IMG/VR virus record: IMGVR_UViG_3300047322_000252
Location: 54,221 to 118,220 of that record
Direction: 5' to 3' (one strand)
Source: a virus
Length of the DNA: 64,000 nt
Positions 2,759 through 62,521 of this stretch are shown here, piece after piece. The notes below the pieces were generated by a model. The model was not told the origin of the DNA. It did no database searches and saw only the letters and a program-made list of their open reading frames with translations. Numbering within the stretch: position 1 is the stretch's first letter; each line of letters begins with the position of its first letter. The position numbers and the translations under genes are program-made.

Positions 2759-3972
2759 CTACCTCCCCCTCGCTGGTCCAGCCTGCTCGCAGCCCGACCA
2801 CCGTCATCGGGGACATCCGGGTGAACGAGCGTTCCATCCTGGTCACTCCCACGCACGGCACGCTCACCCGCAAGGAGGATGAGCACGACACCGCCAGCAT
2901 CTTCGTGGTCACCGGCACTCGTGCCACGGACTTCGATCAGCTACCGAACCAGCGCATCGAGTTCGCCTACGGCACTCCCGGCAACAAGAGCACCTTCCAG
3001 GGTTATGTCAACAGCGTGATGCCGCAGAAGCGGTTGGTGGGTAACCAGACTGTCACCGTGCAGGAGATCTTCTGCTACGGGGCCTCGATGGTGTTGAAGG
3101 GCAACGTCCCCCGCTTCTTCACGTCATTGACATTGACGCAGATGATGCAGCGCATCGTGAGCGAGGCCAACCTGGGCTTCTCCGACGAGTTCCGCAACGA
3201 CACGATGGTGTGGCGCTCTCTGGCCCAGACCTCGGAGTCGGACTGGGAGATGTTGCTGGCCATGGCGAACCGCCTGGCTGCTCGCATCCTCTACGACCAG
3301 GGTGTCGTGCGCCTCATCGACTACCGGGACATCGCCTACCGCATGCTCCCGGTGCGCAAGCTCCTGAGCGGGAGCATGGACCCGGACTTCTCGGCCTCCG
3401 AGACGGGCAACTTCGGGTCGGGCGCCGTGGTCGAGTACGTGCCCATCAGCGTCGGTGTCCAGGACCCGGCCTACCGCACGCCCACCACCGCCTACCTGGC
3501 CGGGAAGTCGGCCGTGGTGCTGACCCCGCCGCTGGCCAGGCTCACGGCTCAGCCCTCGGTCATGAAGAACACCTGGGGGTCGGCACTGGTGGGCCGCTTC
3601 GCCACCGACATGCCTGCGTCATCACAACAAGAGGCCGAGATCATCCAGCAGGGCTTCTACAACCCACCGTGGCCCCAGCAGGCCGAGGTTCGCATCGAGG
3701 GGGACGCCACCGCCTCTCCTGGCACCGTGGTGCAGATCTCCTCGAAGCGGGGGCAAACCATGTCCCCGACCTACGACGGTCTGTGGTACGTCAGTGGGGT
3801 GCAGCACGACATCGGCCTCAACAAGCGCTTCTACACCGTGCTGACCGTGGGTCGGCAGGCTGAGCGGGGCATGAACTGGTATCAGTACCGGCCGTTCTGG
3901 CTGAGTGACAAGCGTGGCCCGCCCACTCTGCGCTCGTCGGGCGCTGGACAGTGGATCTCGAACTGGAGGTGA
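2755..3972 (+). CDS. Baseplate hub protein (gpD/gp27-like)
   Basis: Q..ESDW..L..LA.R and G.WYV..V.H motifs; GTG overlaps the upstream TGA. Confidence 0.7.
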   Translation: MTTSPSLVQPARSPTTVIGDIRVNERSILVTPTHGTLTRKEDEHDTASIFVVTGTRATDFDQLPNQRIEFAYGTPGNKSTFQGYVNSVMPQKRLVGNQTVTVQEIFCYGASMVLKGNVPRFFTSLTLTQMMQRIVSEANLGFSDEFRNDTMVWRSLAQTSESDWEMLLAMANRLAARILYDQGVVRLIDYRDIAYRMLPVRKLLSGSMDPDFSASETGNFGSGAVVEYVPISVGVQDPAYRTPTTAYLAGKSAVVLTPPLARLTAQPSVMKNTWGSALVGRFATDMPASSQQEAEIIQQGFYNPPWPQQAEVRIEGDATASPGTVVQISSKRGQTMSPTYDGLWYVSGVQHDIGLNKRFYTVLTVGRQAERGMNWYQYRPFWLSDKRGPPTLRSSGAGQWISNWR

Positions 3973-3973
3973 C

Positions 3974-4366
3974 ATGCAGGCGCTCAGATTCCCCTTCCAG
4001 ATCGACATCTACGGGCACGTCTCTGTTGTAACAACGTACCCGGAGGTCATCCGTGGGCAGTTGATCGACGTGCTGATGACCAACGAGAACGAGCGGGTCA
4101 TGCACCCCACCTACGGCGCCAACATGGAAGCGGCCCTCTTCGATCCCACTGACGTGTTGGTGCAGGCTGATGCAGCCCAGCAAGTGTCTGAGCGGATCAC
4201 CACCTTCGCTCCCCGGGTGAACCTGCGGGACGTCAGGTTCTCTGCGGACCCTCTCCAGCCAGGCAGGCTCTTCGTGGACGTCAGTTACTCGGCCGGGGCC
4301 TTCGATGAGGCTCGCTCTCTGCGCATCCCGGTCGCCAACTTCCTGAGCGAGGAGTCCTCGGTATGA
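3974..4366 (+). CDS. gp25/GPW-like baseplate wedge (sheath initiator)
   Basis: L.FPF...T..NERVMHP.YG motif; GGAGG RBS before ATG 3974. Confidence 0.85.
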   Translation: MQALRFPFQIDIYGHVSVVTTYPEVIRGQLIDVLMTNENERVMHPTYGANMEAALFDPTDVLVQADAAQQVSERITTFAPRVNLRDVRFSADPLQPGRLFVDVSYSAGAFDEARSLRIPVANFLSEESSV

Positions 4367-5856
4367 CCGCACCCATCGAGATGGACTACACGAACAGGGA
4401 CTACGACTCTCTCGTCTCCTTCCTGGTGAGCGCCGCCCGGGGGTTCATGCCCGAGTGGGTCACCGTGGGCGAGACAACCGACTTCGGAACTTTGTTGTTA
4501 GAACTGTTTGCTTACGTCGGAGACGTGACCAACTACTACATCGACCGGGTCGCTGCCGAGCCGTTCCTGGCCACTGCCCAGCGTCGTCAGAGCGTCCTCG
4601 GCATAGCCGACATGCTGGGGTACACCCCCATCGCCCAGCAGGCTGCCTCGGGCATCGTCACCTTCACCCTGGACGACACCGCCTACCTGAACAGCACCAC
4701 CACCATCCCGTCAGGGACCGTGGTGCAGACGGGCCAGAGCGAGGGCCAGGGGGCCGTCTTCTTCGAGACGACCACCAACGCCTACCTGGGCCAGTCGGTG
4801 CGCACCGCTGACATCGGTGTGAACGAGGGCCGCACCATCGCCACCGAGTACGTGGCGATCTCCAACGGCGCCCCCATGCAGGAGTACGTGCTGATGAACG
4901 CCGGGGTGATCCACCGCAGCACCCGGCTTTACGTGCAGGAGACGGACACCTCCGTCATCGAGTGGAGCTACGTGGACAACCTGGTGGTGGCCGACCCCGA
5001 CGCCTCGGTGTGGACCACCTACCTGGACGACCAGCAGTTCCTGCACATCGTCTTCGGAGACAACGTGGCCGGGCGCATCCCGCCCAACGGCGCTCAGGTC
5101 ACCTGCTCCTACCGCTACGGCGCCGGGGCACGAGGCAACGTGGCCGGGGGCACCATCACCCAGATCACACCACCGATCGCTGGCGTGAGCGTGGTCAACG
5201 CCGCCGACAGCCCCTGCAACGGCGGCGCTGACAACGAGTCGATCGACCAGATGCGCTACTCGATCCCCCGAGCGGCCAAGCTCCGGGACCGGGCCATCAC
5301 CCTCCAGGACTTCGCAGACCTGGCCCACCAGGTACCCGGTGTGGCAAAGGCCACAGCAACGGGCCAGTTCTACACGAACATCAAGGTGTACATCGCCCCG
5401 GTGGGCGGGGGCTACCCCTCGGTTGACCTGCGGGCAGCGGTGGACACCTACCTCACCGAGCGGGCCTTGGTGGGCACCGCTGTCGATGTCCACCCGCTGA
5501 GCACTTCCGAGCAGTTGTATCAACAGATCCACCTGGCGCTCGACGTCCACGTCCGCAAGGAGTTCGGCCAGTTGACCGTGGCCAATGGCGTGCGGGACGC
5601 CATGACCGCCCTCTTCGCCTTCGACTCCTCGGACTTCGGCAAGTTCTACTCCCAGGGCGACGTGTACCACGCTGCGCTGGCCGTCACCGGGGTGGACTAC
5701 ATCGTCTTGAAGGCCATGCAGTTCTACGCCGCCGACAACAGCACCCTTGTGGCTCCCGCCATCGGTGACCTCACGGCCAGCCCGATCCTCATCCCGCTGC
5801 TCGACACCACCGACACGATCAAGTTCGTGCTCACCCCCATCGGGGGCCTGACGTGA
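4363..5856 (+). CDS. Baseplate J/gp47-like wedge protein
   Basis: DYT.RDYDSL, D.G..LLELFAY, FGD...GRIP, GGAD.ES, RA.T..DF motifs. Confidence 0.9.
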   Translation: MTAPIEMDYTNRDYDSLVSFLVSAARGFMPEWVTVGETTDFGTLLLELFAYVGDVTNYYIDRVAAEPFLATAQRRQSVLGIADMLGYTPIAQQAASGIVTFTLDDTAYLNSTTTIPSGTVVQTGQSEGQGAVFFETTTNAYLGQSVRTADIGVNEGRTIATEYVAISNGAPMQEYVLMNAGVIHRSTRLYVQETDTSVIEWSYVDNLVVADPDASVWTTYLDDQQFLHIVFGDNVAGRIPPNGAQVTCSYRYGAGARGNVAGGTITQITPPIAGVSVVNAADSPCNGGADNESIDQMRYSIPRAAKLRDRAITLQDFADLAHQVPGVAKATATGQFYTNIKVYIAPVGGGYPSVDLRAAVDTYLTERALVGTAVDVHPLSTSEQLYQQIHLALDVHVRKEFGQLTVANGVRDAMTALFAFDSSDFGKFYSQGDVYHAALAVTGVDYIVLKAMQFYAADNSTLVAPAIGDLTASPILIPLLDTTDTIKFVLTPIGGLT

Positions 5857-7436: not shown

Positions 7437-8665
7437 CCACCTACGTGAACCAGCATCTGTTGTCACATCTGGCGGACGGCTCGCTCAACTTCAACGGGAC
7501 AAACCTAGGTTTAGCCTTGGTTTACAGCTACGCCGTGCCGACTGACACCAGCCCCGACTCCTTCGACCAACTGCTGCTGTCGGGTGGCTTCCAGGAGCTT
7601 GACGCCGCCACCGGCTATACCCGCATCACTCGGACCGCCAACACCCAGGTGACGGCGCCGCTCACCAAGGTGGCGATCGGGGCCGACTACGCATTGACAC
7701 TGACGAAGCCCACCTTCGTGGCTGCTGGTGTCTGGTACCTGGCGGGCAGCCAGGCGGGATTCACCAACCCCTGGCTCTTCGTCACCGACAGCATGTTCGG
7801 CAATGTTGTGTCACCAGGGGCCATCGTCGGCATCGCCGCCACCCCTAAGGTGCTGTTCTCCTACGTGACGCATGGGACCACAGCGGACGTAGCCGGGGGC
7901 ACGGTGGTGCAGTCTCCTGGCCCCACCACGTGGGAGTCGGCCCGCATCCAGCACGTCTACCTCTATCCGCAGCGGGTCAACTTGATTCCGAACCCGAGCT
8001 ACGAAGATGTCGGCGGCTTCGGGTGGCGCTCAGATGCTGCCATCGCCAGGGTTCTGGGTGGTGTGGACAAGCCTGCGTCCAACTACTTCGGCCGGGCGGC
8101 GGGCAAGGTGGTGCAGTCTCTCTCCATCCCGACCCAGGGCCGCATGCGGTTCTCGGCCTACGTGCGCAAGGGCACCGGCACCAAGATCACCCTGAGTCTC
8201 GTGTGTCTGGACGAGACATACAGCGTGCTCACCACCGTCCAGGGGCATCAGCGGACGTTGTACAGCGACTGGGCACGGTATGACGACCTCCTGGCGCCCT
8301 CCGACGACTGTGTGGCCGTGATCCCCCAGATCATCTCGGACGGGTCCTTCGACTTCGACCTGTGCCTGCTGGAGGCCACCGACCCCCTCCACGACTACTT
8401 CGCCGGGGACTCCGACACCGGGGCGCCCTACGACTTCTCGTGGCAGGGCCAGGCCCACCAGTCCTACTCTTGTTATTACAACAACCGCCATGTGACGGCA
8501 GCACGCCTGTTCGGGGGCTATTTCAACGGCCAGATGACCTTGCCTGGCCTCGTGCAGGACTGGATTCCCACTGGCACGGCAGTGTACACCCACTGGGATG
8601 TGCTGAGTATGACGGATACTGGGCACCCCTTGAAGGACTGGTCACCCAAGATCTTCGTGCCGTAG
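7433..8665 (+). CDS. Minor tail protein with carbohydrate-binding-like domain
   Basis: RVNLIPNPS.E and YF.GD motifs typical of actinophage minor tail proteins. Confidence 0.55.
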   Translation: MTTYVNQHLLSHLADGSLNFNGTNLGLALVYSYAVPTDTSPDSFDQLLLSGGFQELDAATGYTRITRTANTQVTAPLTKVAIGADYALTLTKPTFVAAGVWYLAGSQAGFTNPWLFVTDSMFGNVVSPGAIVGIAATPKVLFSYVTHGTTADVAGGTVVQSPGPTTWESARIQHVYLYPQRVNLIPNPSYEDVGGFGWRSDAAIARVLGGVDKPASNYFGRAAGKVVQSLSIPTQGRMRFSAYVRKGTGTKITLSLVCLDETYSVLTTVQGHQRTLYSDWARYDDLLAPSDDCVAVIPQIISDGSFDFDLCLLEATDPLHDYFAGDSDTGAPYDFSWQGQAHQSYSCYYNNRHVTAARLFGGYFNGQMTLPGLVQDWIPTGTAVYTHWDVLSMTDTGHPLKDWSPKIFVP

Positions 8666-11633: not shown

Positions 11634-11765
11634 GGTGCCTTTCCTTTCGTAGGCTTCGGTTTCTACACCCTCGGCCTCGCAGGAGTCAACAAGAAGCCCC
11701 ACATTGACTTCTTGATGGGCCGTATGGCATGTATGCAACAGAACGAGCATTGACACTGACATGAA

Positions 11766-11800
11766 GAGAGGCCCCCCGTACCAACACCGGGGGGCCTCTC
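11766..11800. terminator. 13-bp stem hairpin
   Basis: GAGAGGCCCCCCG...CGGGGGGCCTCTC. Confidence 0.5.
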
Positions 11801-11951
11801 CTGTCCTGCATGCTCCTGCTGCCTTCTCTGGGCGCTGGAGCGCACGTACATCCTACCCTTCATACTCCGGGCCTCCTGGACAGGGCCTGTGACACTTGCC
11901 ACGACCCTTCACTTCCGGGGCCTTCCCTGCCTCATAGAGAGTATGGAAACC

Positions 11952-12044
11952 ATGGAGTGCCCCATCTGCCACGTCCAGCGCCCTGAGGATGTACACCTCG
12001 ACTGGTGTACCTACGAGGGTCCCGAGCCTGCTGACCAGGACTAG
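11952..12044 (+). CDS. Possible 30-aa Cys/His peptide (MECPICHVQRPEDVHLDWCTYEGPEPADQD)
   Basis: ATG...TAG with CxxC..H...C; below the ORF-track length cutoff. Confidence 0.35.
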   Translation: MECPICHVQRPEDVHLDWCTYEGPEPADQD

Positions 12045-12060
12045 CGCCCGTCAATGTCAA

Positions 12061-12088
12061 TGGGACGGAGTCCTAAGACTCCGTCCCA
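12061..12088. other. Perfect 12-bp stem hairpin upstream of the replication genes
   Basis: TGGGACGGAGTC-CTAA-GACTCCGTCCCA. Confidence 0.55.
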
Positions 12089-12364: not shown

Positions 12365-12823
12365 ATGGCCAGAGACGGACGCCGGGGTGATGACCCGGCA
12401 TGGGAGGGCACGCTGCCGACAGGTGGACGGAGGAAGAAGGACCCCGCACTGCTGAACCGACTGCGGGAGCACTTCTGGCGACAGATGGACAGTGTGCCCC
12501 TGTCCGTACCTCGGTGGGACTCGATCCCCCGTATGAACGCCAACATGAAGTGGATGCTGGAGGGTGGCGACGGCCGACCACCGATCCCCGAGGACCTACT
12601 ACGGGTGTCGTTCGAGTACTTCCGCAACGACGTGGACTCGTTGGACCTTGGTCCACAGACGCCGTGTTGGAACGTGTACTTCGCACGGCGCACCACCTAC
12701 CTGCGTCAAGCCGCTGCTGCTCAGGCCGGGTCCCGAGGCGACGGTCATACTGTGGTGGTTGGGGACATTGCTGGGGATAAGCCTGTGAGGAAGCGGAGGC
12801 GTGTCATCCGTCGTGAGACGTGA
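12365..12823 (+). CDS. Hypothetical protein, possible replication initiator partner of the DnaC-like ATPase
   Basis: GTGA coupling to the AAA gene; start uncertain (ATG 12365 chosen). Confidence 0.5.
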   Translation: MARDGRRGDDPAWEGTLPTGGRRKKDPALLNRLREHFWRQMDSVPLSVPRWDSIPRMNANMKWMLEGGDGRPPIPEDLLRVSFEYFRNDVDSLDLGPQTPCWNVYFARRTTYLRQAAAAQAGSRGDGHTVVVGDIAGDKPVRKRRRVIRRET

Positions 12824-13434
12824 CTACTGTGGCTGCCCACATGGACACAGCCTTCGCCTCCGAGGTCTGGCCGATCCCCGCTCGCTTCGCTCGCATCGAG
12901 CCGAGGCAGTGGGCCGTCCGTGGTGCCAAGGACTACCCGGCTGAGTGGGAGATCGCCAAGTCGTGGCTCGCCAAGTTCCGCTCCTACCTCGTCGGCTCGC
13001 CCTTCCCCGAACTGATCGGTCAAGGCCTACTCCTCACCGGGCCTGCGGGCACCGGCAAGACCATGCTCGCTTCGAGCTTCATCACCTACCTGCGGGGCAA
13101 ACAGTTCTCCACCGCCTTCATACGGGACCGGGACCTGTACAGCCTCCTGGACATGCGCTACCCCTCCGACGACGTCATGGACCGGCTCTGGCTGGTGGAG
13201 CGGTGCGCCTGCCTCGTCATCGATGACGCCCTGCGCATGGGCGGCAAGAGCGAACTGCTGGAGCCGTTCCTCCGATACCGCCAGGACGAGGGCAAGCCCA
13301 CCATCGTGACGATGAACAACCAGGTGGCGGTCAGCGAGGTGCTGGGCAGCTTCCTGCACTCCTACACGGCCATCAACCTGGCGGGCGAGGACCGAAGGGT
13401 CAACCCCATCGAGGTGCGTGGTGCAAGATGGTGA
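12820..13434 (+). CDS. DnaC/IstB-like AAA+ ATPase (helicase loader)
   Basis: GLLLTGPAGTGKT Walker A, LVIDD Walker B, R....KPTIVT.N, G.DRR. Confidence 0.85.
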   Translation: MTTVAAHMDTAFASEVWPIPARFARIEPRQWAVRGAKDYPAEWEIAKSWLAKFRSYLVGSPFPELIGQGLLLTGPAGTGKTMLASSFITYLRGKQFSTAFIRDRDLYSLLDMRYPSDDVMDRLWLVERCACLVIDDALRMGGKSELLEPFLRYRQDEGKPTIVTMNNQVAVSEVLGSFLHSYTAINLAGEDRRVNPIEVRGARW

Positions 13435-13840: not shown

Positions 13841-15114
13841 TGGACTACGGCAACGGGTTGATCTCGTGCATCCTCAACGGCGAGGACCTGGGCACCGCCA
13901 TCGAGCGGGGTGTCACCGTGGCCTTCTTCACCGAGGAGCGGGACAAGGCCGTCTTCGGCTCCATGCTGCGGCACTACCAGAAGTACGGGACCACGCCCAC
14001 GCCCGACGTGATCCTCCAGTCATACCCGTCATACGAGATCGGGCAGTACCCGCACCCCACCGAGTACTACATCGACGCTCTCGCCAGCCGACGTCGCCAG
14101 GCCATCGTGATCAACGCCGCCCAGGAGGTGGTGGAGGCGTTGAACACCGAGGGCGACGATCCCGGGCAGGACGCCGTCAGTGTGATGGAGAAGGCCATCC
14201 TCCAGGCCCACTTCGAGACGTCCCCGGCCAAGCACGTGAGCTACGTGGACCTGTTGAAGCGCCGGGTGCCCGAGTGGATGAACGGGTTCAGCACGCCCTC
14301 CATCCCCTACGGCATCCCCACCCTGGACCTGCACACCGGAGGCATGAGGCCCGAGCAGTTCATCGTCCTCACCGGGTTGGCCAAGAGTCGCAAGACGTGG
14401 ACGGCGCTCTACATCGCCTCCAACGTCCACGTGTATGCCCCCGTTGTGTTCATAACATTCGAGATGTCCAACGACGAGCAGCTTGAACGGCTCGCCACCC
14501 TGTGGGGGAAGATCCCCTACGACATCGTGCGAGGGGACAAGACTCAACTCACCGAGGACCACTTCCACTCGATGACCCGGTTCCTCCACGTGCGGGAGCA
14601 GTTCTCCACCTTCCTCGGTGTCGAGGACGCAGCCGGGCACTCCACCGTCACGAGCATCCAGGCCCTCATCCAGGACACGGACCCGGCGCTGGTGGTCATC
14701 GACGGCGTCTACTTCATGACCGATGAGGTGACCGGCCTCCAGGGGTCCTCGGACCATCAGGCACTGACCAACATCAGCCGGGCGTTGAAGCGCTTGGCCA
14801 AGACGCAGAAGGTCGCCATCCTGGCCACCACCCAGACGTTGGCCGGGAAGATCAGCAAGGGCCGCACCAGTCTCTTCGGGATGGGCTACACGAGCGCCTT
14901 CTCCCAGGACGGGGACCTGGTCATCGGCATCGAGACACTGGAAGATCAACCCACTCTCGGCGTCATGCGTATCCTGGGCAACCGCTCCGGTCCCCAGGGC
15001 ATCGACTTCCACCTGGCATGGGACCTGAACACAGGTCTGGTCGAGGAAGTCGAAGGTGTGGCTGGTGAGAGCGGAGACGCTTCGGGAGGGTACGAGTATG
15101 ACGACATCGCTTGA
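13840..15114 (+). CDS. dnaB: DnaB-like replicative helicase
   Basis: GIPTLD..TGG.RP, variant Walker A GLAKSRKT, FITFEMS, LVVIDG.Y.M, ISR.LK.LA, QD.D. Confidence 0.9.
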   Translation: MDYGNGLISCILNGEDLGTAIERGVTVAFFTEERDKAVFGSMLRHYQKYGTTPTPDVILQSYPSYEIGQYPHPTEYYIDALASRRRQAIVINAAQEVVEALNTEGDDPGQDAVSVMEKAILQAHFETSPAKHVSYVDLLKRRVPEWMNGFSTPSIPYGIPTLDLHTGGMRPEQFIVLTGLAKSRKTWTALYIASNVHVYAPVVFITFEMSNDEQLERLATLWGKIPYDIVRGDKTQLTEDHFHSMTRFLHVREQFSTFLGVEDAAGHSTVTSIQALIQDTDPALVVIDGVYFMTDEVTGLQGSSDHQALTNISRALKRLAKTQKVAILATTQTLAGKISKGRTSLFGMGYTSAFSQDGDLVIGIETLEDQPTLGVMRILGNRSGPQGIDFHLAWDLNTGLVEEVEGVAGESGDASGGYEYDDIA

Positions 15115-45446: not shown

Positions 45447-45475
45447 GGGCGTGGGAGGTACCCCCTCTCACGCCC
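45447..45475 (+). terminator. Hairpin after the Ig-like gene
   Basis: GGGCGTGGGAGG...CCTCTCACGCCC. Confidence 0.5.
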
Positions 45476-45514
45476 TCCGCTGTTCTACGCTGCGCCCCAG
45501 CGAGAGGAGTTGTC

Positions 45515-46609: not shown

Positions 46610-46617
46610 GAGGGATC

Positions 46618-48155: not shown

Positions 48156-48203
48156 GTGTACATGGTACCAAACCTTTGCATACTTTCCTCGGCGGTGAGC
48201 TAG

Positions 48204-49609: not shown

Positions 49610-49794
49610 TGGACGACCGAGCGAAGCTACGAGGGGCGGTGACCCGGACCAGTCGCCAGTTCGACAAGATCCTCGCTCAGTACGGCGCCAACGACATCCC
49701 CGAGAGCCATCCGCTGCACGCCAAGGCGGTAGCAGCCAAGCAGAAGCACCGGGCGGCTACGCAGGCGCTGAGGGAGCACGAGCAGCGTGAATGA
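49606..49794 (+). CDS. Hypothetical protein
   Basis: Coupled ORF. Confidence 0.5.
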   Translation: MMDDRAKLRGAVTRTSRQFDKILAQYGANDIPESHPLHAKAVAAKQKHRAATQALREHEQRE

Positions 49795-50311: not shown

Positions 50312-50413
50312 CAGCCACGCCATCACCACGAACAGTGCTATGACAACAGTCAATGTCAATGCGTCTCTGAGCATGTTCCCGCCCTCCCAGTTGAGCCGAG
50401 CTACGCTACCGCC

Positions 50414-50725
50414 ATGGCTCTGAGCAAGAAGCCTGCCCAGGATGAGGGCACCATGATGGGCGGTAAGAAGGTGCGTACCGTTCGAGGTGGTGGCATCTGT
50501 TCGTCCGGGGACAAGCCTGCGCTCACCAGGGACACCTTGAAGACGGTCACCTGCCAGGCGACTCCTGGAGCGGACCCTCGGCCTCGCTGGCGGGTGGCTG
50601 GCTCCAACATCTCCTCCACCGGCTCACAAGGTTCACACGGCACCCGAGGTTCCCGGGGTAAGACGCACGGCTCTCCGACAGCGGAGAAGGAAAAGCCTCG
50701 TCTCCTGCGTCAGAGGAGCGGCTGA
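50414..50725 (+). CDS. Basic hypothetical protein
   Basis: Leaderless TACGCT, 6 nt, ATG. Confidence 0.55.
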   Translation: MALSKKPAQDEGTMMGGKKVRTVRGGGICSSGDKPALTRDTLKTVTCQATPGADPRPRWRVAGSNISSTGSQGSHGTRGSRGKTHGSPTAEKEKPRLLRQRSG

Positions 50726-50726
50726 C

Positions 50727-51344
50727 ATGCCTGACTTCCACGGCTACGGCTACAACTCCTGGCAGACCCCTGGCTCGTGGGGCGGCGGCGGTATGTCCCG
50801 CTCCCGCATGGGTGTCTTCCACAACGGTGCCGTCTTCGGCACGCCGTTCAAGGGCGGGCCGTTGAAGGGGATGCAGCCCTCCAAGACGCCGAACACGCCC
50901 GGGGGCCGGGCCTTGGAGCCGCTGGGCGGCGTCGAGTGGGGCAAGGGCACCGCTGCGATCGGCAACGTGTTGAAGACCCGAGGGGCCGTGAAGCCCCGCT
51001 GGGGCACGTTCCAGGGCAGCACGCTGGCCTCGGCGCCGATGATGCAGCAACAGCCCGCCCTTGGAGCGGGTACACAGCCCATGGCCCTTGGAGCGGGCAC
51101 CGAGCAGTTGGCGCTCAACGCAGCCCCGGCTCGCCAGCTTGGAGGGCCGACAGCCCAGGGCGCTCTTCCTCGTGCCGCTCCACAGCCTCCTGGTCCCGTC
51201 GTGATGCCTTCTGGGCCTCGGCCCACGGGTCCGGCGCCCACACCGCTCGCTCTCGGCCCTGCTGGCTCCGCAGCGCCTCTTGGACCCACACGCCGGGGGC
51301 GTCAGAAGGCCTTCGCCGGGCAGATGAAGTTCGGAGAGGGCTGA
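50727..51344 (+). CDS. Gly/Pro-rich hypothetical protein with ALGAG repeats
   Basis: AGGAG RBS; near-tandem gcccttggagcggg repeats around 51057-51100. Confidence 0.6.
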   Translation: MPDFHGYGYNSWQTPGSWGGGGMSRSRMGVFHNGAVFGTPFKGGPLKGMQPSKTPNTPGGRALEPLGGVEWGKGTAAIGNVLKTRGAVKPRWGTFQGSTLASAPMMQQQPALGAGTQPMALGAGTEQLALNAAPARQLGGPTAQGALPRAAPQPPGPVVMPSGPRPTGPAPTPLALGPAGSAAPLGPTRRGRQKAFAGQMKFGEG

Positions 51345-51874: not shown

Positions 51875-53206
51875 GTGACACGTCTCTACTTCGCTGGCGC
51901 CGAGCAGCCCTCGCATCGCAACCTGCTGAGTGACTGCGGCGTCGAGCGCTTCGCCATCAACCTGACCAACATCAACCGCACCGTGAGCGGCGCTTGGAAC
52001 GTCTTCGAGCACCTGCCTCCAGGAGCGGAGTGGATCGCCTACGCCGACGAGCAGACCACGTGGGAGATGGCCGAACCCTTCGTGCGCCAGGAGCCGTTGC
52101 TCACCCTGGGGCCACTGGAGTGGCACACGCACTTCGAGGACGAGACGGCCTTCGCCCCCTTCTACCAGGTGGGCCTCCAGGGCTGGACGTTCCCCACGAT
52201 CGCCCTGACGGACGACAACGTGAAGCACCAGAACGTGCTGCGGTCGATCCTGGCGGGCTACCGGGGCAACGCCCTCGTGGCCGTCACCGGGTCGAGCAAG
52301 GGCGGTGTGGAGCGCTTGGACGCTCTCGTCACCAGCGCCTGGTTCGCCGCTCAGCGCTTCGGAGAGACGCAGGTGTGGGGAGGAACCAAGCTGCATCGCT
52401 ACGCAGGCTCACGCAAGGCTGAGGCCCGTCCCAAGCACCGTGCCGACATCGAGCGGCTGGGCATCGACTACCGGCTGATCGAGGCCGACGATCCCGAGGA
52501 AACGGCCCGCCTCGCTGTTGTGTCATGGCTCGCCTGGGAGGAACGCCATGCTGTGACAGCACCGAACCTCCTCTCGCTGTCAAGCACAGAGGAGTACTCG
52601 GATCAAGACGGGATGGGATCGGCGCACGTGGGCCTTGCCAGCGTCACCTCCAAAGCCCGGCACGATCGAGAGCAAGTCCTGCTGCCGGTGATGGGCTTGG
52701 AAGACCACGAGGAGCGGACGGTTGACGGCGAGGGCCGGGAGACGGTCACGACGCATCAGTCGGTCCGAGGTGTGGGCGAACTCATGCGCTCGTGTGACTC
52801 GTGCTTCCTGGCCCCGAGGTGCCCGGCCTTCCAGCCTCAGCACACGTGCGCCTTCAAGATCCCGGTCGTGATCAGGAGCAAGGACCAGCTACAGGGCCTC
52901 ATGCGGTCCGTGATCGAGATCCAGGGCCAGCGGGTGCTCTTCGCCCGGTTCGCAGAAGAGATTGAGGGCCAGGGCCTCAACGGCGACCTCTCGGCCGAAA
53001 TCGACCGGCTGTTCAAGAGCCTGGCAGCGATGAAGGACATCAACGACACCCGGGACGTGCTCCGGCTAGAGCTAGAGGCCAAGGGCAACAGCGGGATGCT
53101 GTCCCGTCTGTTCGGCGCCGATGTCGGCAACACGGCCAAGGCCTTGCAGGCTCCCCTGCACTCTGATCAGGTCTTGGACGCCTTCGAGCGCACTCCGCAG
53201 CATTGA
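51875..53206 (+). CDS. Multidomain phage protein: LYFAG-type N-terminal domain, Cys cluster CxxCxxxxxCP..C, helical C-terminus
   Basis: Leaderless TAGCCT, 7 nt, GTG; CDSCFLAPRCPAFQPQHTC. Confidence 0.65.
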   Translation: MTRLYFAGAEQPSHRNLLSDCGVERFAINLTNINRTVSGAWNVFEHLPPGAEWIAYADEQTTWEMAEPFVRQEPLLTLGPLEWHTHFEDETAFAPFYQVGLQGWTFPTIALTDDNVKHQNVLRSILAGYRGNALVAVTGSSKGGVERLDALVTSAWFAAQRFGETQVWGGTKLHRYAGSRKAEARPKHRADIERLGIDYRLIEADDPEETARLAVVSWLAWEERHAVTAPNLLSLSSTEEYSDQDGMGSAHVGLASVTSKARHDREQVLLPVMGLEDHEERTVDGEGRETVTTHQSVRGVGELMRSCDSCFLAPRCPAFQPQHTCAFKIPVVIRSKDQLQGLMRSVIEIQGQRVLFARFAEEIEGQGLNGDLSAEIDRLFKSLAAMKDINDTRDVLRLELEAKGNSGMLSRLFGADVGNTAKALQAPLHSDQVLDAFERTPQH

Positions 53207-53312
53207 CACTGACACGCAGGTGACCAGCACCGTCGCTGGACTAGTCGAGACGGACAGCCGTGGCTCCGGTGCCGAGTAGTAGGAGGGTGCTGGTCGTCGT
53301 GATGATGCCCGA

Positions 53313-53371: not shown

Positions 53372-54709
53372 TCAGACCGGGAGTGTGAACCCCCGCCCCT
53401 TGACTTCGATGAGGCCCTGCTCCACCGCCAGGTCGAGCGCCGCCCCGCACCGCTCCGGGTGGGCCATGAAGCGGTTGGACTTGCGCATGACGTCCCGCTT
53501 CGAGAAGTCCGGGCCGACCTTCTGAGCGATCGCCATCAGGTGGACCAGGTCGTCGTCAGCGAAGCTGGCGCCCATCTCCCCGAACGCCCGCTTGGCGTCG
53601 ATCATCAGCGCCCGCAGGATGGCCTTGGCCGCTCCGGTGTCGTTCAGCGTCACCGTGTCCCGGCCGTTGACGATCGCCATGATGGCGGCGAGGCGGATGA
53701 AGTGACCACCACGGACCTTGGAAGCCCAGGCGGCGATCGAGCCGAGCATGCCGTCCGGCGCCATCAGCGGCTCAATCTCGTCCCGCCACTTCCCAATCTC
53801 CCGCACGGCGTCGCCGTTCCAGGTGATGGACTTGGGGTCCTTGTCGGAGTACCCCTTGACGATCCGAAGCATCTCGGCCTCGTACTCGCCCTGGGCCTCC
53901 GGGCTGGTCAGGTGCGGGCGGCTGATCCGCTGGCCGATCAGCGACTCCGGGTAGCTGATCAGGAACCGGGGCATCACGCCACGGTTCACCATGTCGGCGC
54001 CCAGGCTGTTCAGCACCGTGGGCTGCATCGCCAGCATCATGGTCAGGACCGGGCGGGCGATGGTCACCTGGCCGGTGCCACGACGGGCCTGCGTCAGCGT
54101 CTCGCCGTCGTAGCCCTTCAACAGGGCTTCCTTGGACCCGCCCCGGAAGTTGAGCAGACCCTCGGCCTCCGGGGAGGCGATGACCACCCGGCCGTTGTTG
54201 TCCTGCAACGCATCGATGAGCGCCGCAGGCGTGGCGTCGGTGAGGACGACCTGGGGGACCGCCTGGGAGGCCGACAGGCTCATGGCCCGCTCCGCAGCGG
54301 CAACCTCGGCCACGGCCTCTTCGATGGTCATGTTGCCCTTGGCGACCTCGTTCATCGCCTTGGCCTCGACTCGCTTGACGTACTTGCGGTTGACCCGGTT
54401 CCGGATGGCCTGGTACTTGGCGTCAGCGGCCTGCGTCACACCCGTCACATCGGTGAAGGCCCGGGTGACGGGGTCGAGCAGACGGGAGTAGACGGGGGAC
54501 TTGCCCTCGCCCGAGGCCAGGAGAGCCAGGGTGTAGAGCGTGGCTGGTTCCTTCCAGCCGGGGACCGGCATGGTGTTGGCACCGCCATTGATGGCTGAGG
54601 ACACGGCGCCCAACGACAGAAGGGCGACCGCATCGGTCGGGACCTGCAACTCGTCAGCCGTCTCGGTGACGAAGTCTGAGAGCCAGGAGGGAAGGTGATC
54701 GGTGAGCAT
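53372..54709 (-). CDS. DUF3987/YfjI-like P-loop protein
   Basis: W.EP..LY.L....SGEGKSP, D.TP.AL...L..N.GR, LLK.YDG....R, QP.VL, RG...RFL..P. Confidence 0.8.
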   Translation of the reverse strand: MLTDHLPSWLSDFVTETADELQVPTDAVALLSLGAVSSAINGGANTMPVPGWKEPATLYTLALLASGEGKSPVYSRLLDPVTRAFTDVTGVTQAADAKYQAIRNRVNRKYVKRVEAKAMNEVAKGNMTIEEAVAEVAAAERAMSLSASQAVPQVVLTDATPAALIDALQDNNGRVVIASPEAEGLLNFRGGSKEALLKGYDGETLTQARRGTGQVTIARPVLTMMLAMQPTVLNSLGADMVNRGVMPRFLISYPESLIGQRISRPHLTSPEAQGEYEAEMLRIVKGYSDKDPKSITWNGDAVREIGKWRDEIEPLMAPDGMLGSIAAWASKVRGGHFIRLAAIMAIVNGRDTVTLNDTGAAKAILRALMIDAKRAFGEMGASFADDDLVHLMAIAQKVGPDFSKRDVMRKSNRFMAHPERCGAALDLAVEQGLIEVKGRGFTLPV

Positions 54710-55068: not shown

Positions 55069-55470
55069 TCACGCCTTGACGATCTTCCGCTTCGGCTTGG
55101 CCGGGGCGCTGGTCCGCTTGGTGGCAGGTTTCGAGCCATTGCCATTGACACTGGCCTCTTCCCGAGCCGCCTTGATCGAGCGCAGGCTGGGGGACTTGGT
55201 CACGCCACGCTCCGAGGTCTGGTCCTCATGCTTCTGCACGACGACGTAGCCGTCCTCGGTGATCCGGACCCGGACCTTCAAGCCACGCCGGTTGGCCGAC
55301 GTGCGGACGACCCGTTCCAGTGAGACAGCGGGACCATCGAAGTCCTCGCCCGGGTGCAACTCATGGATGCGGCCATCGAACCACTCGGACCAGGGGTACG
55401 AGCGGCTGCGGGGTGTAGCGCTGTTCCTGGACACGAAGGTCCAGTCGAAACTCTTCAAGACGGTGGACAT
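55069..55470 (-). CDS. Small basic protein, putative DNA binding
   Basis: YPW.EWFDG....L..GEDF; AAGGAAGG RBS; basic tail. Confidence 0.65.
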   Translation of the reverse strand: MSTVLKSFDWTFVSRNSATPRSRSYPWSEWFDGRIHELHPGEDFDGPAVSLERVVRTSANRRGLKVRVRITEDGYVVVQKHEDQTSERGVTKSPSLRSIKAAREEASVNGNGSKPATKRTSAPAKPKRKIVKA

Positions 55471-55982: not shown

Positions 55983-56027
55983 GGTCAGGGGTCCTTTGTC
56001 AATGTCAATGGTGTTGTGACGATGTTA

Positions 56028-58019
56028 TCACATCGCCCGGAGAATGTACCGGCGCAGGAAGTGAGGAATCTCGCCCAGCGAGCCAAGTTGCTGGACGGTG
56101 GAGCACTGCTCCATGCCGTTCGGGCCACTGCTGATCGGGGTGTTCCAGAAGAACATGACCATGTCCCGGTGGGGCACCATGTAGTCGCCCAGGCTGTACT
56201 TGCTGTGCCAACGCCCGCCCCAGGCGCCATCGGTCATGATGATCACCAGGTGGTGATCCTTCCCGGCCATCTGGTCGTCCAGCAGGTCGAGCGTGGACTT
56301 GGGGTCGGTGCCACCGCAGGGGATGACGTCGTAGGGCACTTCCAGGGGACGGTCATCCTTGTCCCACAGGAGGTAGGGCGCCGTGTCGAACAGGGTGACG
56401 GTGCAGGGGATGCCCACCACGTCGCACGCACTCTTCACACCGAACGCCGCTGTCGCCAGGTCGTCGTTGTAGGGCTGCATCGAGCCGGACCCGTCCAGCA
56501 CGAGGGACACCGCCATGTTGGGCAGGTGCATATCGCCCCCGTCCGCATACTGGCGGAAGAACTCCATATCGCCCGGCTGACGGGTCTTGTAGCGGATGAC
56601 GTCCACGACGCCCTGGCGCTGGTTGCCCTGCCACGACGGCGCCCGCTCCGCACGAGCCTCTTCCATGAGGTTGCGCAGGCCACGGTTCAGCTTGGTGGCC
56701 TCGGCGGTGAGCAGGGGGTCGGGATGGCCGACCGTGGGCACCCGCTTGATGGGCAGGGAGCCGTTGGCCCTCGCCAGCGCCTCGTTGAACGCCCTGACGT
56801 CACCGACCACCGTGCGGTCCTGGTTCCGCTCTTCCTTCGCCCGGCGCACGGCCTCACGTAGGGTGTCCCGGTTCCAATCCTTGTTCCACACGGCCTCGCC
56901 AACCGAGTCGTCAGCGGCGCCGCCGAACGGGTCCAGGTCGCCAATCTCGCCCTTGGCACCACGGTCCGCAACGGCTGGGCCGTCACCTTCGTCGTCGCCC
57001 TCGTCGTCACCCTCATCGGCGTCTGCATCCTCGTCGCCATCCTCGTCGTCTGGCGTCCCTTGACCCTGGCCTTCGCCGTCCTGGTCCTCGCCCTCATCTA
57101 CGCCTGGCGCCTGTGAGCGGTCGAGACGCTGGGCCTCTTCCTTGCCGTCCAGCGCCTCGCCATCGCCATGGCCGTCCATGTCGTCCAGGTTGGACCCTGC
57201 CGCCAGGCGGTTGAAGCGCACGACGCACTCCCACATGGTGTCCAGGTCGCCAGCCGCCATGTAGCGGTCGATCAGGCGCTCAACCTCTCGGACCTGAGCC
57301 TCACCGACCTCTTGGACCATGGCGACACGAGCGGCCACCCGAATGGCCTCGTCCACGTGCTTGCGACCGTGGAGCAGGAGGTAGGCCCTGGGCGACACGT
57401 CGCCGTTCAGGACGTGGGTGAGCACGATCACGTTGTAGTAGCGGCCGAGGTTCTTGGAATCCCTCACCATGGCCGTCTCCATGCGCTGATCTTCGAGCAT
57501 GTTCCAGGCGTGGTGCAGTTCGTCCTGGTCAGCGATCCACTGGCCGAGTGACCGGCGCCGCTGGTTCCTGGCCCAATCGTTGTCATCACAGGGCATGACG
57601 TGGTCCAGCATGTTCAGGAAGGGGACCGTCTTGATGATGTGGCCCGCCTCGTGGTACGCCAGCCCTCGCAGGTCGGCGGCGAAGTCCAGCGTCATCTCCT
57701 GATCCTCCCGGATGGCCGGAATGGAGAGGTTGATCGACCGGAAATCGGTGTAGGCAGAGAACTCTCGGGCCGGATGCTCCACAGAGAGGGGAACACGCTT
57801 CCCGGCCCAGGAGTCGATGGCGCCGCTGATCCGGGGCACGAGGCCGGTGATCACGGCGTTCTGCTTCAAGATGAAGCCCTTGGTCTGCTTCTGCTTGTCC
57901 AGGGCCTCTCGGCGGTCCATGGCGAGACTCCGCTGCTCACGCAGCTTGCGCCGCTCAGCGGCCTGCTCTCGCCTGACGTCCCGGAGGGACTTGCCTGCTA
58001 TGGGGTCAGGGGTGCTCAT
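56028..58019 (-). CDS. CobT-like vWA protein with N-terminal HExxH region and acidic linker
   Basis: YHEAGH, N.LEDQRME, D/E-rich linker, LVLDGSGSM MIDAS, GGT, IMTDG; true start ATG 58019 (leaderless). Confidence 0.85.
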   Translation of the reverse strand: MSTPDPIAGKSLRDVRREQAAERRKLREQRSLAMDRREALDKQKQTKGFILKQNAVITGLVPRISGAIDSWAGKRVPLSVEHPAREFSAYTDFRSINLSIPAIREDQEMTLDFAADLRGLAYHEAGHIIKTVPFLNMLDHVMPCDDNDWARNQRRRSLGQWIADQDELHHAWNMLEDQRMETAMVRDSKNLGRYYNVIVLTHVLNGDVSPRAYLLLHGRKHVDEAIRVAARVAMVQEVGEAQVREVERLIDRYMAAGDLDTMWECVVRFNRLAAGSNLDDMDGHGDGEALDGKEEAQRLDRSQAPGVDEGEDQDGEGQGQGTPDDEDGDEDADADEGDDEGDDEGDGPAVADRGAKGEIGDLDPFGGAADDSVGEAVWNKDWNRDTLREAVRRAKEERNQDRTVVGDVRAFNEALARANGSLPIKRVPTVGHPDPLLTAEATKLNRGLRNLMEEARAERAPSWQGNQRQGVVDVIRYKTRQPGDMEFFRQYADGGDMHLPNMAVSLVLDGSGSMQPYNDDLATAAFGVKSACDVVGIPCTVTLFDTAPYLLWDKDDRPLEVPYDVIPCGGTDPKSTLDLLDDQMAGKDHHLVIIMTDGAWGGRWHSKYSLGDYMVPHRDMVMFFWNTPISSGPNGMEQCSTVQQLGSLGEIPHFLRRYILRAM

Positions 58020-58163: not shown

Positions 58164-59192
58164 ATGGCAACTCCAAACCCGAAAGCGAGCAAGCGGCCGA
58201 TGGCCTCCACCCTGACAGTGACCGGCGAGGAAGCTCGCCCTCTGACGATCGATGACGAGCGCCTGGATGCGCTGCGTCCCAACCCCCTCCTGGCGCAGAC
58301 CTACGTGAGCCGCAAGATGGCGAACGGGGACACCGACGTCGAGTACCTGATGAAGTGCTGGGCCAAGCGGGAGAACGTCCTGCTGGTCGGTGACACCCAG
58401 GGCGGCAAGACGATGCTGGTCAACGTCCTCGCCATCCATATCGGTGAGGCCATGGGCCTCGGCAAGCCGGTGCCGGTGTTCACCCTCTCGGCCTCGAACG
58501 GCATCACTGACTTCGACCTGTTCGGACAACCCACGGCGTGGACCGATCCCGAGACGGGCATCGAGCGCCTGGTGTGGCTCCCCGGCATGGCCGACCTGGC
58601 TGCCCGAGTCGGCGGCATCTTCTACCTGGACGAGGTCAACATGATGCCCGAGCGGGTCACGTCGAGCCTCCACCCCATGACTGACTGGCGCCGGACGTTC
58701 ACCAACCGGGCCAAGGCCGTCAAGGTCCCCGGCGACGGCTTCATGCCCGAGACGGTCACCCTGTCGGACAACCTGTGGATCGTCGGCACCATGAACCCCA
58801 ACTACCGGGGCGCCGGGGCGCTCAACGAGGCCTTCGCCAATCGTTTCCGCCACCTGGACTGGACCTACGACGACAAGGTCGAGCGGTCCCTGATCCCCAA
58901 CGATGCCGTGCGCACCCTGGGCGATGCCCTGCGCCAGGCCCGAGCCACCGGCCACGTCCGTACCCCGGTCGGCACCAGCGCCCTCATGCGGCTGGCCGAT
59001 GACTGTGTGAGCGATGGCGTGGATATGGCCCTGTTCGTCCTGACCAGCATGTTCACCAGCGACGAGCGCCTGGTGGTGGACGAAATCATCGAGAGCCGCA
59101 GCTTCAAGACGCTGTTGCAGAACGCCATCGACCACGCTCACCCCCTCACCGGCTCCGGTGACGGCGTGCTGGACCCGGATAGCCCGTTCTAG
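58164..59192 (+). CDS. MoxR/CobS/CbbQ-like AAA+ ATPase
   Basis: NVLLVGDTQGGKT, FYLDEVN, GTMNP.YRG...LNEAF.NRF. Confidence 0.9.
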   Translation: MATPNPKASKRPMASTLTVTGEEARPLTIDDERLDALRPNPLLAQTYVSRKMANGDTDVEYLMKCWAKRENVLLVGDTQGGKTMLVNVLAIHIGEAMGLGKPVPVFTLSASNGITDFDLFGQPTAWTDPETGIERLVWLPGMADLAARVGGIFYLDEVNMMPERVTSSLHPMTDWRRTFTNRAKAVKVPGDGFMPETVTLSDNLWIVGTMNPNYRGAGALNEAFANRFRHLDWTYDDKVERSLIPNDAVRTLGDALRQARATGHVRTPVGTSALMRLADDCVSDGVDMALFVLTSMFTSDERLVVDEIIESRSFKTLLQNAIDHAHPLTGSGDGVLDPDSPF

Positions 59193-59300: not shown

Positions 59301-60095
59301 ATGCAAACCCTGGCACCCCAACCGAACCGCTCCACCAACAGCATCACGCTCTCGTGGGGCATGATCAACATTCCCTGCTCCGTCTACACCGGCACCGAGT
59401 CGGTCAGCGTGGCCCGCAAAGAGTTCGTGGTCGGCACCGACCATCCGGTGGGCCGGGTGTCCATCGACAAGGTGGACGGCACCGTGGTCGATCGGGCCGA
59501 CGTCGTCAAGATGGCTGAGGCCACCAGCGGCGTGTTCGTCCTCCTGGACGACGACGAGATTGCCGCCGTCACGACCGACCGGGGCCTCGCCACCATCGAG
59601 GGCTTCGTGCCCGTCACCAAGCTGGGCGAGTACCTGACCGATGGCCTGCTGCAAGTCCGGCCCAAGCGGGTCAAGGGCAAGGTCGATCCGGGGGGCAACC
59701 GCTCCCTGGCCCTGCTCTTCGCCGCCATGAAGCGGGAGAAGGTCGCCGCCCTGGTGAACGTGGCTCTGCGTGGCCCGGCCCGCTACGCCTTGCTCACCAG
59801 CGACGGCTTCATGCGCTTCGTGATCACCGCCGACTGCATCCGCACCCCGCTCCCCATGCCGGACGGCGTCGCCACCATGGACGAGGTCACCATGGCCTGC
59901 ACGTTCATCAAGGCCATGGGCAAGGGCACGCCGGTCCTCACCGACAGCACGGCCCGAGCCATCCAGTCCTACGTGGACAGCAAGGCCGAGGGCCATCCGG
60001 TCATCGTGAGCGAGGAACCCGTCGCCACCGGCCCCGAACTCATGCAGCAGATGCTCGCCAGCATCGAGCAGCAGAAGGCTGCCAAGGCCTCCTGA
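59301..60095 (+). CDS. ku: Ku-like DNA end-binding protein
   Basis: RS....LSWG.INIP..VY, V.R...DK.DG..V...DVVK, V.L.DDE, TI.GFVP, LL..AM, LM..M.ASI; leaderless start. Confidence 0.8.
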   Translation: MQTLAPQPNRSTNSITLSWGMINIPCSVYTGTESVSVARKEFVVGTDHPVGRVSIDKVDGTVVDRADVVKMAEATSGVFVLLDDDEIAAVTTDRGLATIEGFVPVTKLGEYLTDGLLQVRPKRVKGKVDPGGNRSLALLFAAMKREKVAALVNVALRGPARYALLTSDGFMRFVITADCIRTPLPMPDGVATMDEVTMACTFIKAMGKGTPVLTDSTARAIQSYVDSKAEGHPVIVSEEPVATGPELMQQMLASIEQQKAAKAS

Positions 60096-62315: not shown

Positions 62316-62458
62316 GCGAGCAGCCGGGCCAGGAGATCTACTACCCGGAGGTTGACCCGAACAGGCCCAAGCCACCGAGGCCCAATCCGCCCCTGGACCC
62401 GTACCCGCACCCCGGCACGCTGGTGCAGAAGCACCTGGACGCACCGCCGCCTGGTTGA
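62312..62458 (+). CDS. Pro-rich 48-aa peptide
   Basis: ATGA coupling; followed by a terminator-like hairpin. Confidence 0.4.
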   Translation: MSEQPGQEIYYPEVDPNRPKPPRPNPPLDPYPHPGTLVQKHLDAPPPG

Positions 62459-62482
62459 CACAACAGCAGGGCCATTGACATT

Positions 62483-62521
62483 GACAAAGCCCCCTCGATT
62501 CCGGGTCGAGGGGGCTTTGTC
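62483..62521 (+). terminator. 16-bp stem hairpin
   Basis: GACAAAGCCCCCTCGA-TTCCGGG-TCGAGGGGGCTTTGTC. Confidence 0.7.

Follow-up and report, generated by a model that had tools for sequence, protein, structure and literature searches.

In Cluster A mycobacteriophages, the stoperators of the L5 (gp71) and TipsytheTRex repressors are asymmetric sites of 13-14 bp present in more than 20 copies per genome, as far as these sources describe them (PMC9283540, PMC6550527). The sites of Clusters A and CA are described there as intergenic or overlapping gene termini, oriented mostly along transcription, and with a consensus that shifts between related phages (PMC9283540, PMC6550527, PMC13313380). Among the Cluster CA Rhodococcus phages, the account of phage Rasputin gives 25 sites with the consensus TGTCTATTGTCAAG (PMC13313380). 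The present study concerns a dispersed 13-letter word, CATTGACAYTGAC, in the IMG/VR virus record IMGVR_UViG_3300047322_000252 (118,220 bp; G000 for the whole record), to which the stoperators appear, by analogy, to be the closest described logic. The stretch analysed (the window) comprised 64,000 nucleotides, bases 54221-118220 of the record; positions are those of the window unless marked as genome positions or assigned to another genome. An earlier note, made from the window alone, had described the word as a near-invariant, stoperator-like asymmetric site or, alternatively, as a sigma factor decoy or internal promoter element.

The likeness to the Cluster A and CA stoperators lies in an asymmetric word of 13-14 bp with more than 20 copies (30 in G000, and 16 in the 58.8 kb of a related IMG/VR fragment, G001), in placement at gene boundaries, in an orientation bias in G000, in a consensus that shifts between lineages, and in the TGTCAA contained in the other strand of the word. 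The differences are that G000 is 118 kb long rather than approximately 50 kb and carries no sign of lysogeny, that the word is a tandem hexamer with an orientation of approximately 2:1 over the clade and many copies beside hairpins, and that no copy was seen over an early promoter.

Other described systems share single features with the word. Cluster O mycobacteriophages (Corndog) reportedly carry 17-bp dyad repeats in many dispersed copies; dozens of copies of one word are thus spread across an actinophage genome, but those repeats are two-fold symmetric, whereas the present word is a direct repeat with an orientation bias. The PeSL cassettes of T4-type phages consist of an early promoter and a stem-loop at gene boundaries. 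They resemble the word as short conserved elements near stem-loops, between small early genes and with variable gene content, but PeSL has a recognisable sigma-70 promoter and the word has no -10 partner. The omega repressor of pSM19035 is a ribbon-helix-helix (RHH) protein acting on 7-bp heptads. The sites of omega and of pCXC100 ParB form arrays of 2-10 units, placed at promoters or centromeres, whereas here two 6-bp units are scattered approximately every 4 kb, without arrays. The likeness is that symmetric RHH dimers read short, non-palindromic units arranged head to tail or inverted, and their binding to unspaced, non-palindromic direct repeats, described with a 9-bp unit for pCXC100 ParB (PMC3074162), fits the tandem build of the word; three RHH proteins are encoded by this phage.

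What distinguishes the word is that it is built of tandem hexamers, varies in concert within the clade, has antisense copies that are conserved, is associated with hairpins and occurs in a phage without any lysogeny gene; no described system accounts for the antisense conservation or the hairpin association. The reading that we tentatively prefer is that the copies may be operator or stoperator-like sites for a putative DNA-binding protein private to the clade, which would control transcriptional read-through.

Copy number and form of the word

Thirteen exact copies of CATTGACAYTGAC were found in the window, against none in 100 dinucleotide-preserving shuffles, each with the position and strand listed in the earlier note. 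When up to two mismatches were allowed, 19 matches were obtained and 2.25 were expected. Five copies had a single mismatch: 17519(+), 23319(-), 31065(-), 55137(+) and 55143(+). The three of these already listed (17519, 31065 and 55143) were real, but 23319(-) and 55137(+) had been overlooked. Over the whole record 26 exact copies were counted, 17 on the plus and 9 on the minus strand, and the reversed pattern used as a control gave none. Copies in relatives pointed to a wider pattern, CAYTGACAYTGAC, in which C is allowed at position 3; it had 30 exact, 7 one-mismatch and 17 two-mismatch matches in G000, compared with 0, 0.5 and 9.1, respectively, in dinucleotide shuffles (n = 30). The copies in G000 are thus either perfect or nearly absent, and the motif was rightly called near-invariant. 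Enrichment was not confined to the window, but extended over the genome and the clade.

The word is built of two unspaced AYTGAC hexamers, with C or T tolerated at the same position of each. The base that follows the 13-mer consensus CAYTGACAYTGAC was usually a purine, and the information outside these 13+1 bases was below 0.25 bit at every position (52 sites). These observations support an asymmetric, self-contained site. In a text search of the literature, the 13-letter strings occurred only in papers that, judged by their titles and the openings of their abstracts, concern neither phages nor bacterial gene regulation; supplementary motif lists were not covered by this search.

Distribution among related phages

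CAYTGACAYTGAC was common to four other phage lineages, on five of six contigs. The fragment G001 (polymerase 54% identical, syntenic with genome 58-114 kb of G000) carried its 16 copies exclusively as CACTGACACTGAC. Two contigs, G006 (18.75 kb) and G011 (26.4 kb), represent one phage, being 99.8% identical over 15.9 kb, with a terminase 78% identical to that of G000; together they held seven distinct copies, in both variants. Two exact copies and one with a single mismatch were present on G012 (8 kb), and three copies on G013 (5 kb; terminase 86% identical). No copy was found on the 6.3-kb contig G010, in seven more distant relatives (G002-G005 and G007-G009; polymerase identity 46% or less, two of them complete genomes), or in the first 50 kb of the 112.5-kb Streptomyces phage BRock. 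A scan of IMG/VR with a 14-base pattern returned, among the matches listed, mostly single chance matches, and only G006 proved to be related. The word belongs to a narrow phage clade. At position 3, T was found in 26 of 30 copies in G000, and every one of the 16 copies in G001 had C, which shows a change that differs between lineages and is uniform in G001.

Conserved positions and override of protein sequence

Approximately 9 of the 16 G001 sites had a counterpart in G000 when located by flanking orthologues, six of them exact and three with one mismatch, and the DNA around the matched intergenic sites looked unalignable between the two genomes. Two matched sites lie in the tails of conserved proteins. 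The SNF2 helicase gene ends with the one-mismatch copy GATTGACATTGAC at 17519-17531(+) (genome 71739), matched by an exact copy at the same place in G001 (39551); both genomes encode LTLTL here, compared with L-x-L-D-L/F in four relatives. In the C-terminal tail of RecA, the exact copy at 27300-27312(+) (genome 81520; GIDIDD) corresponds to the variant of G001 at its position 30359 (RTDTDN), and relatives have unrelated residues; Ile or Thr is found because the motif has ATT in G000 and ACT in G001. From this comparison the word is shown to be under selection at the DNA level, overriding the protein sequence in the RecA and SNF2 tails. It had been proposed before that protein sequence does not explain the word, and this was borne out both by these tails, which follow the DNA, and by the reading frames, IDTD and IDID being encoded in one frame and S/A-LTLT in another.

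The intergenic and boundary sites matched in the same way included the minus-strand copy at 55998-56010 (genome 110218) past the gene for a protein of 663 amino acids (aa), located between two minus-strand genes, 15 nt before the next ATG, and matched by G001 4090. At a convergent junction, the copy at 53201-53213(+) (genome 107421; G001 6795) overlaps the TGA with which the queuine tRNA-ribosyltransferase-like gene ends; G001 has a copy and a hairpin at this junction. Ahead of the amidase (lysin) gene, the copy at 42013-42025(+) (genome 96233; G001 19479) follows a conserved 184-aa gene, and an inverted pair occupies the G001 junction. An inverted copy at 44305-44317(-) (genome 98525; G001 15125) lies 25 nt upstream of the gene at 44343-44762 (genome 98563) and is kept as inverted in G001.

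Where the DNA polymerase I gene begins, the one-mismatch copy CATTGCCATTGAC at 23319-23331(-) (genome 77539) is antisense, as is the exact copy at the G001 polymerase start (34159). Two overlapping one-mismatch copies, forming three hexamers, lie at 55137-55155(+) (genome 109357-109375), antisense in a minus-strand gene, and an exact antisense copy is found near the orthologue of this gene (genome 109289) in G001 (5178). A likely ninth match is the minus-strand copy at 12050-12062 (genome 66270; G001 45597), in the large intergenic region ahead of the replication genes.

Placement, orientation and hairpins

Gene maps were made with a home-made codon log-odds caller trained on long open reading frames (ORFs), in which starts and short genes can err; for G000 and its relatives the maps were adequate for strand blocks. 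Compared with 5000 random placements, 17 of the 30 G000 copies lay outside genes (3.5 expected; p<=0.0002) and 21 of the 30 within 70 nt of a gene end (8.4 expected). For the 16 copies of G001 the corresponding numbers were 8 (1.8 expected; p<=0.0002) and 12 (3.5 expected). Half of the 18 co-oriented copies within genes were located in the last 15% of the gene.

With respect to the local genes, 22 copies of G000 were co-oriented and 6 antisense (binomial p=0.004), and the ratio pooled over the first three genomes was 35:14 (p=0.004). The copies added from G011, G012 and G013 comprised two co-oriented, three antisense and one unclear, by our own reading of the maps. The orientation of the word flipped in minus-strand blocks, tracking local gene direction. 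Within genes of the first three genomes, 18 copies were sense and 6 antisense. A stop closes one of the three frames of the sense word (CAT TGA), and the antisense word has none in any frame; since the sense bias exists despite this closed frame, coding constraints do not create it.

That all exact intragenic copies are co-oriented with their gene was true within the window but not over the genome, where genome 41148(-) is antisense inside a plus-strand gene; the CAC variants at genome 6189(-) and 85285(-) are antisense too, the latter being the CACTGACACTGAC variant at 31065-31077(-) within a plus-strand gene of the window. The co-oriented exact copies within plus-strand genes of the window, apart from that in RecA, were those at 3125-3137 (CATTGACATTGAC; SLTLT), 7692-7704 (ALTLT), 24102-24114 (IDTD, inside DNA polymerase I and absent at this place in G001) and 29306-29318 (IDTD, in a 108-aa gene, 30 nt ahead of its stop). 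Four intergenic copies had been described as inverted. Three of these, 12050(-), 44305(-) and 50349(-), are inverted relative to their plus-strand neighbours, the last (50349-50361) lying 37 nt past the end of a plus-strand gene, but the fourth, 55998(-), is co-oriented because it is located between minus-strand genes.

Hairpins were counted when they had a perfect, G+C-rich stem of at least 11 pairs, and were scored as adjacent within 30 nt of a copy. Six of 22 hairpins in G000 were adjacent to a copy (0.6 expected), as were three of six in G001 (0.16 expected). The copy was directly ahead of the hairpin in five cases, with gaps of -1, -1, 5, 6 and 24 nt, and after it in the others, including the single case in G006. 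Hairpins beside copies were terminator-like, often without a U tract. In the window, the copy at 11748-11760(+) is placed in a 730-nt intergenic region between divergent genes, 5 nt before a G+C-rich hairpin with a 13-bp stem and no T run (11766-11800). In the same region, the copy at 12050 abuts a hairpin with a 12-bp stem (12061-12088), and at 62473-62485(+) the last four bases of the copy are within a hairpin with a 16-bp stem (62482-62522). The association between copies and hairpins is real but moderate. Close inverted pairs of the word itself were also present, two in G001 (gaps of 4 and 14 nt) and one in G006 (gap of 8 nt), the latter at a convergent junction where G000 has one copy and an ordinary hairpin.

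The word was densest, at approximately 1 per 2.4 kb, in the stretch that begins at genome 112.4 kb, crosses the arbitrary start of the record and ends at 17.8 kb, which is the presumed early region. The first 127 bases of the record are identical to the last 127 (genome 1-127; window 63874-64000), an exact overlap that is entered by an open frame. Given this exact identity and the open frame, the 'direct terminal repeat' looks like an assembly overlap of a circular map and not like physical ends, so that the genes at the left end probably prolong the plus-strand block from genome 112.4 kb. Neither an array of hexamers nor a cluster such as an origin would have was found, the maximum being 5 hexamers in 400 nt, and consecutive hexamers never exceeded two, save for the degenerate triple at 55137-55155.

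A second, degenerate word of the type TGTTGT-N-ACAACA / TGTCACAACA was often observed within approximately 40 nt of the 13-mer, on either side, near many of the intergenic copies, for example at 44288-44304, 50335-50348, 56011-56034 and 62453-62466; its strict pattern had only one match in the genome. A small plus-strand ORF of 51 aa with a CPIC...C motif (11889-12044) was also noticed within the large intergenic region ahead of the replication genes; its end is followed after 5 nt by the inverted copy at 12050 with the adjoining hairpin.

Candidate proteins

Four proteins of the phage are candidate readers of the word, as judged by their domains: one ArsR-type winged-helix protein and three RHH proteins. 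The three RHH proteins are of the Arc/CopG type, with matches to Arc-like repressor families, and are encoded at genome 16191-16394(+), 25600-25752(-) and 11731-12057(+); no copy was found in operator position before an RHH gene. The winged-helix protein (62632-63318, plus strand) is encoded by the gene that comes first downstream of the 62473 copy with its hairpin, and has an ArsR-type winged helix-turn-helix (wHTH) and a C-terminal beta-barrel. Only nine homologues were found among 5.8 billion proteins, and none in IMG/VR or GTDB, so the spread of this protein seems to be approximately as narrow as that of the word. Sequence searches of the PDB and the Atlas gave generic wHTH and SH3/KOW-like matches, as did structure searches with a model of moderate quality and weak matches (mean predicted local distance difference test score, pLDDT, of 69; best Foldseek E of 9e-4).

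Proposed control of read-through by a clade-private protein

The 13-mer would, in the reading that we prefer, be a self-contained double-stranded DNA site for a sequence-specific protein private to a small clade. The two AYTGAC hexamers, with their same tolerated C/T position, could be contacted by two equivalent reading heads arranged head to tail. Bound at the boundaries of transcription units, the protein may control read-through, as an operator/stoperator-like roadblock or as a termination helper, and not initiation. We infer the reading by a protein, the identity of the reader and the effect of its binding. The invariant 13+1-bp word, its equal hexamers, the lineage-wise change and the conserved placement, including that of antisense copies, agree with a specific contact between protein and DNA. 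The location at ends of units, convergent junctions and hairpins that lack a U tract, with no promoter element downstream, argues for read-through control rather than initiation.

Several observations weigh against this reading. The orientation of the G001 copies was near random (9:7), and that over the clade approximately 37:17, or about 2:1, which makes a strictly polar mechanism doubtful. Since the gene calls were home-made, some of the labels 'inside gene' or 'intergenic' may be wrong. Part of the hairpin association is due to both features being intergenic: conditional on intergenic DNA, a rough estimate for G000 gave approximately 1.8 adjacent hairpins expected and 5 seen. No copy stood in operator position over a recognisable early promoter. 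The 6-bp spacing is tighter than the documented 7-9 bp repeats of RHH proteins. The second domain of the winged-helix protein models as an SH3/KOW-like barrel and not as a second DNA-reading head. The winged-helix gene had no match in G001, G006/G011, G012 or G013, all of which are fragments, and no motif-bearing relative matched any of the candidate readers.

The description of the word as a stoperator-like asymmetric site held for copy number, length, near-invariance, boundary position and the orientation bias of G000, but not for the repressor, the life style or the relatives: no homologue of L5 gp71 and no integrase were found, and the G001 orientation was 9:7. When L5 gp71 (183 aa, NC_001335.1) was compared with all six frames of G000, no match was obtained at E<=10, with no positive control included; the winged-helix protein, with its SH3/KOW-like barrel, was the sole HTH protein of two domains. 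The integrase families PF00589 and PF00239 (tyrosine and serine recombinases) had no match in G000, in scans where ParA/ParB were not searched by themselves. Membership of the Cluster A stoperators therefore fails on repressor homology, life style and the orientation in relatives.

A bolder form of the read-through reading, which we regard as unlikely, is a genome-wide marking of boundaries, by which a clade-private protein, reading the word at gene ends and next to hairpins without a U tract, would set, or switch in the course of infection, the stops of host RNA polymerase, that is, a phage-encoded, factor-dependent terminator/insulator code. Such a code, unlikely in the same degree, would be built from parts unrelated to the repressor/stoperator pair of mycobacteriophages, and without sign of lysogeny. 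If a phage protein does read the word, approximately 30 fixed, conserved sites would give a handle on how transcription is organised in an actinophage that is large and uncultured and lacks any recognisable repressor, sigma factor or RNA polymerase. If true, the stoperator logic of 'many identical sites' would then apply outside the temperate phages of the Cluster A kind as well. Because the word is brief, exact and biased in orientation, it is easily tested with synthetic DNA and the four small candidate proteins. A working word-protein pair would, if true, be a compact DNA-protein module for high-G+C hosts.

Alternative explanations

A signal at the RNA level is a distinctly unlikely alternative. 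The sense sequence CAYUGACAYUGAC in mRNA would be bound or cut by a phage or host factor, with roles in processing between cistrons, in translation control of the next gene, or in modulating the adjacent terminator hairpin. The 22:6 co-orientation in G000 is in favour of it, as are the many copies located within the final 60 nt of a gene or at most 30 nt ahead of the following start codon (for example genome 24339, 40979 and 110218, and G001 4090); at G006 7295 the TGA stop is part of the motif, which directly adjoins the following ATG. In four cases a copy touches or overlaps a hairpin on its 5' arm, and the inverted pairs, separated by 4 and 14 nt in G001 and by 8 nt in G006, would form perfect 13-bp hairpins whatever the loop length. 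Approximately one third of all copies, however, are antisense to local genes, and no fewer than two sites have kept their antisense copy in both G000 and G001, one ahead of gene 98563 and one where the polymerase gene starts. Tandem hexamers with the same Y position also fit a repeated protein-DNA contact better. Sense copies were predicted to be less paired than their flanks (0.45 versus 0.38 unpaired; Wilcoxon p=0.03, 35 sites), but this gap in accessibility is small, is expected for an A+T-richer word in RNA of 65% G+C, and is too weak to decide.

It is quite improbable that the 13-mer alone is a promoter, with transcript starts a short way downstream, read by a phage RNA polymerase that has escaped recognition or by the host enzyme under the direction of a phage factor. 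The copies are self-contained, near-invariant, mostly co-oriented, placed at boundaries and densest in the presumed early region, all of which would suit such a promoter, as would the lack of enrichment of canonical sigma-70-type promoters in the first 20 kb, where one was found and 2.1 were obtained in shuffles. No RNA polymerase or sigma factor was found, though, in a bulk Pfam scan of 124 proteins, which for the second set covered the first 25 of 35 families and in which the T7-type family was not searched by itself; sigma-70 region 4 gave, over the whole G000 record, only a 12-bit match below the cut-off. Several copies stand at convergent gene ends or directly ahead of hairpins without a downstream gene, among them genome 17832, genome 107421 and G001 6795, each at a convergent junction. 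Some copies are followed by a strong hairpin at once, some lie 0-15 nt from a start codon, and one third are antisense.

Other upstream elements were also considered. No enriched words were found upstream of genes. On its reverse strand the word resembles what we take to be the actinobacterial RecA-NDp/PafBC element, for whose consensus a string search of the literature gave only unrelated papers; in such a promoter a -10 box would lie approximately 8 nt downstream, but TANNNT followed the reverse reading at 6-10 nt in none of 63 copies (G006 and G011 both counted), and this candidate was rejected. The gene at 44343-44762 has TAGGTT 7 nt before its ATG, its G001 orthologue (around 15090-15125) has TAGGGT 6 nt before the ATG, and the winged-helix gene has TAGAGT 7 nt before the ATG at 62632; these boxes look like promoters of leaderless mRNAs, as in Actinobacteria.

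Another DNA transaction is as improbable as a promoter of this type. The word would then be an identity 'linker' for module exchange at gene boundaries, or a nicking, replication or packaging site. Some copies do occur at breaks of synteny between G000 and G001, namely past the gene for the 663-aa protein, ahead of gene 98563 and within the large intergenic stretch that precedes the replication genes. A putative initiator and DnaC-like loader pair (genome 66585-67654) was found only in motif-bearing genomes, and the 730-nt intergenic region with two copies is just upstream of it; the pair (12365-13434) consists of a basic 152-aa protein and a DnaC/IstB-like ATPase, present in G000 and G001 and without a match in four motif-less relatives. 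The hexamers, however, are not clustered or arrayed as would be expected of an origin, and their orientation tracks local gene direction instead of the single genome-wide polarity expected for packaging. Thirteen bp are short for homologous exchange, no nickase was identified, and where the tails of RecA and SNF2 have been rewritten, the strength of the selection indicates a site that is read, not a side effect of recombination.

The use of the word as host sigma-A -35 boxes, or as a decoy or internal promoter element for sigma factor and RNA polymerase, rested on the TTGACA that CATTGACA includes in G000 and is close to refuted, because TANNNT was present 16-19 nt downstream of either hexamer in only 2 of 52 copies, the flanks are not conserved (0.25 bit or less), the 16 G001 copies all have CTGACA and not TTGACA, and some copies face no gene.

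Phage type and other genes

The G+C content of G000 is 64.8%, and sequencing runs containing its DNA were rhizosphere and soil metagenomes; for 41001-51000, no RNA run was among those listed. The nearest isolated phages were Streptomyces phages of the BRock group, with identities of 45-47% for the terminase and 32-33% for the polymerase. The closest DNA polymerase I proteins were 87%, 86% and 74% identical to that of G000. IMG/VR gave no match in a single-protein search with this polymerase or in a search with an alignment of the four closest polymerases; a metagenome-contig search with the same alignment yielded only two distant polymerases and one 4-kb fragment. An alignment of the lysin had no match in GTDB genomes, and its sole match among isolated phages was weak (31%, one Bacillus phage record). 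Contigs of four DNA runs over genome 1-20000 represented the same phage at 100% identity, together with unrelated partial matches; they held no usable variation and no ends at copies of the word.

Family scans of G000 identified a baseplate wedge protein, DNA polymerase I, a queuine tRNA-ribosyltransferase-like protein, DnaB, SNF2 helicase, RecA, DUF3987 and an amidase. Further matches were to Ku, a MoxR-type AAA protein, a Toprim primase, the three RHH proteins, the one ArsR-type winged-helix protein and an Acb2/Tad1-like domain. The queuine tRNA-ribosyltransferase-like (DpdA-like) gene (51875-53206) is convergent with the DUF3987 gene (53372-54709). Such a transferase is annotated in Streptomyces phage BRock as well, and its presence in both phages suggests 7-deazaguanine modification of DNA in this phage group. 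The Ku homologue (59301-60095) adjoins the MoxR-type AAA_5 ATPase (58200-59192), and both were kept in all relatives compared. A 1009-aa protein (18045-21074, minus strand) with glucose/sorbosone dehydrogenase, PKD and Excalibur domains was shared by G000 and G001 but by none of the other genomes compared. The Acb2/Tad1 hairpin domain was matched (E of 6e-21) by an early-region protein within genome 1-32000; members of this family act as sponges that take up nucleotides used in anti-phage signalling. The tRNA genes Pro(GGG) and Ala(GGC) are located at genome 31337-31506, just upstream of the terminase region.

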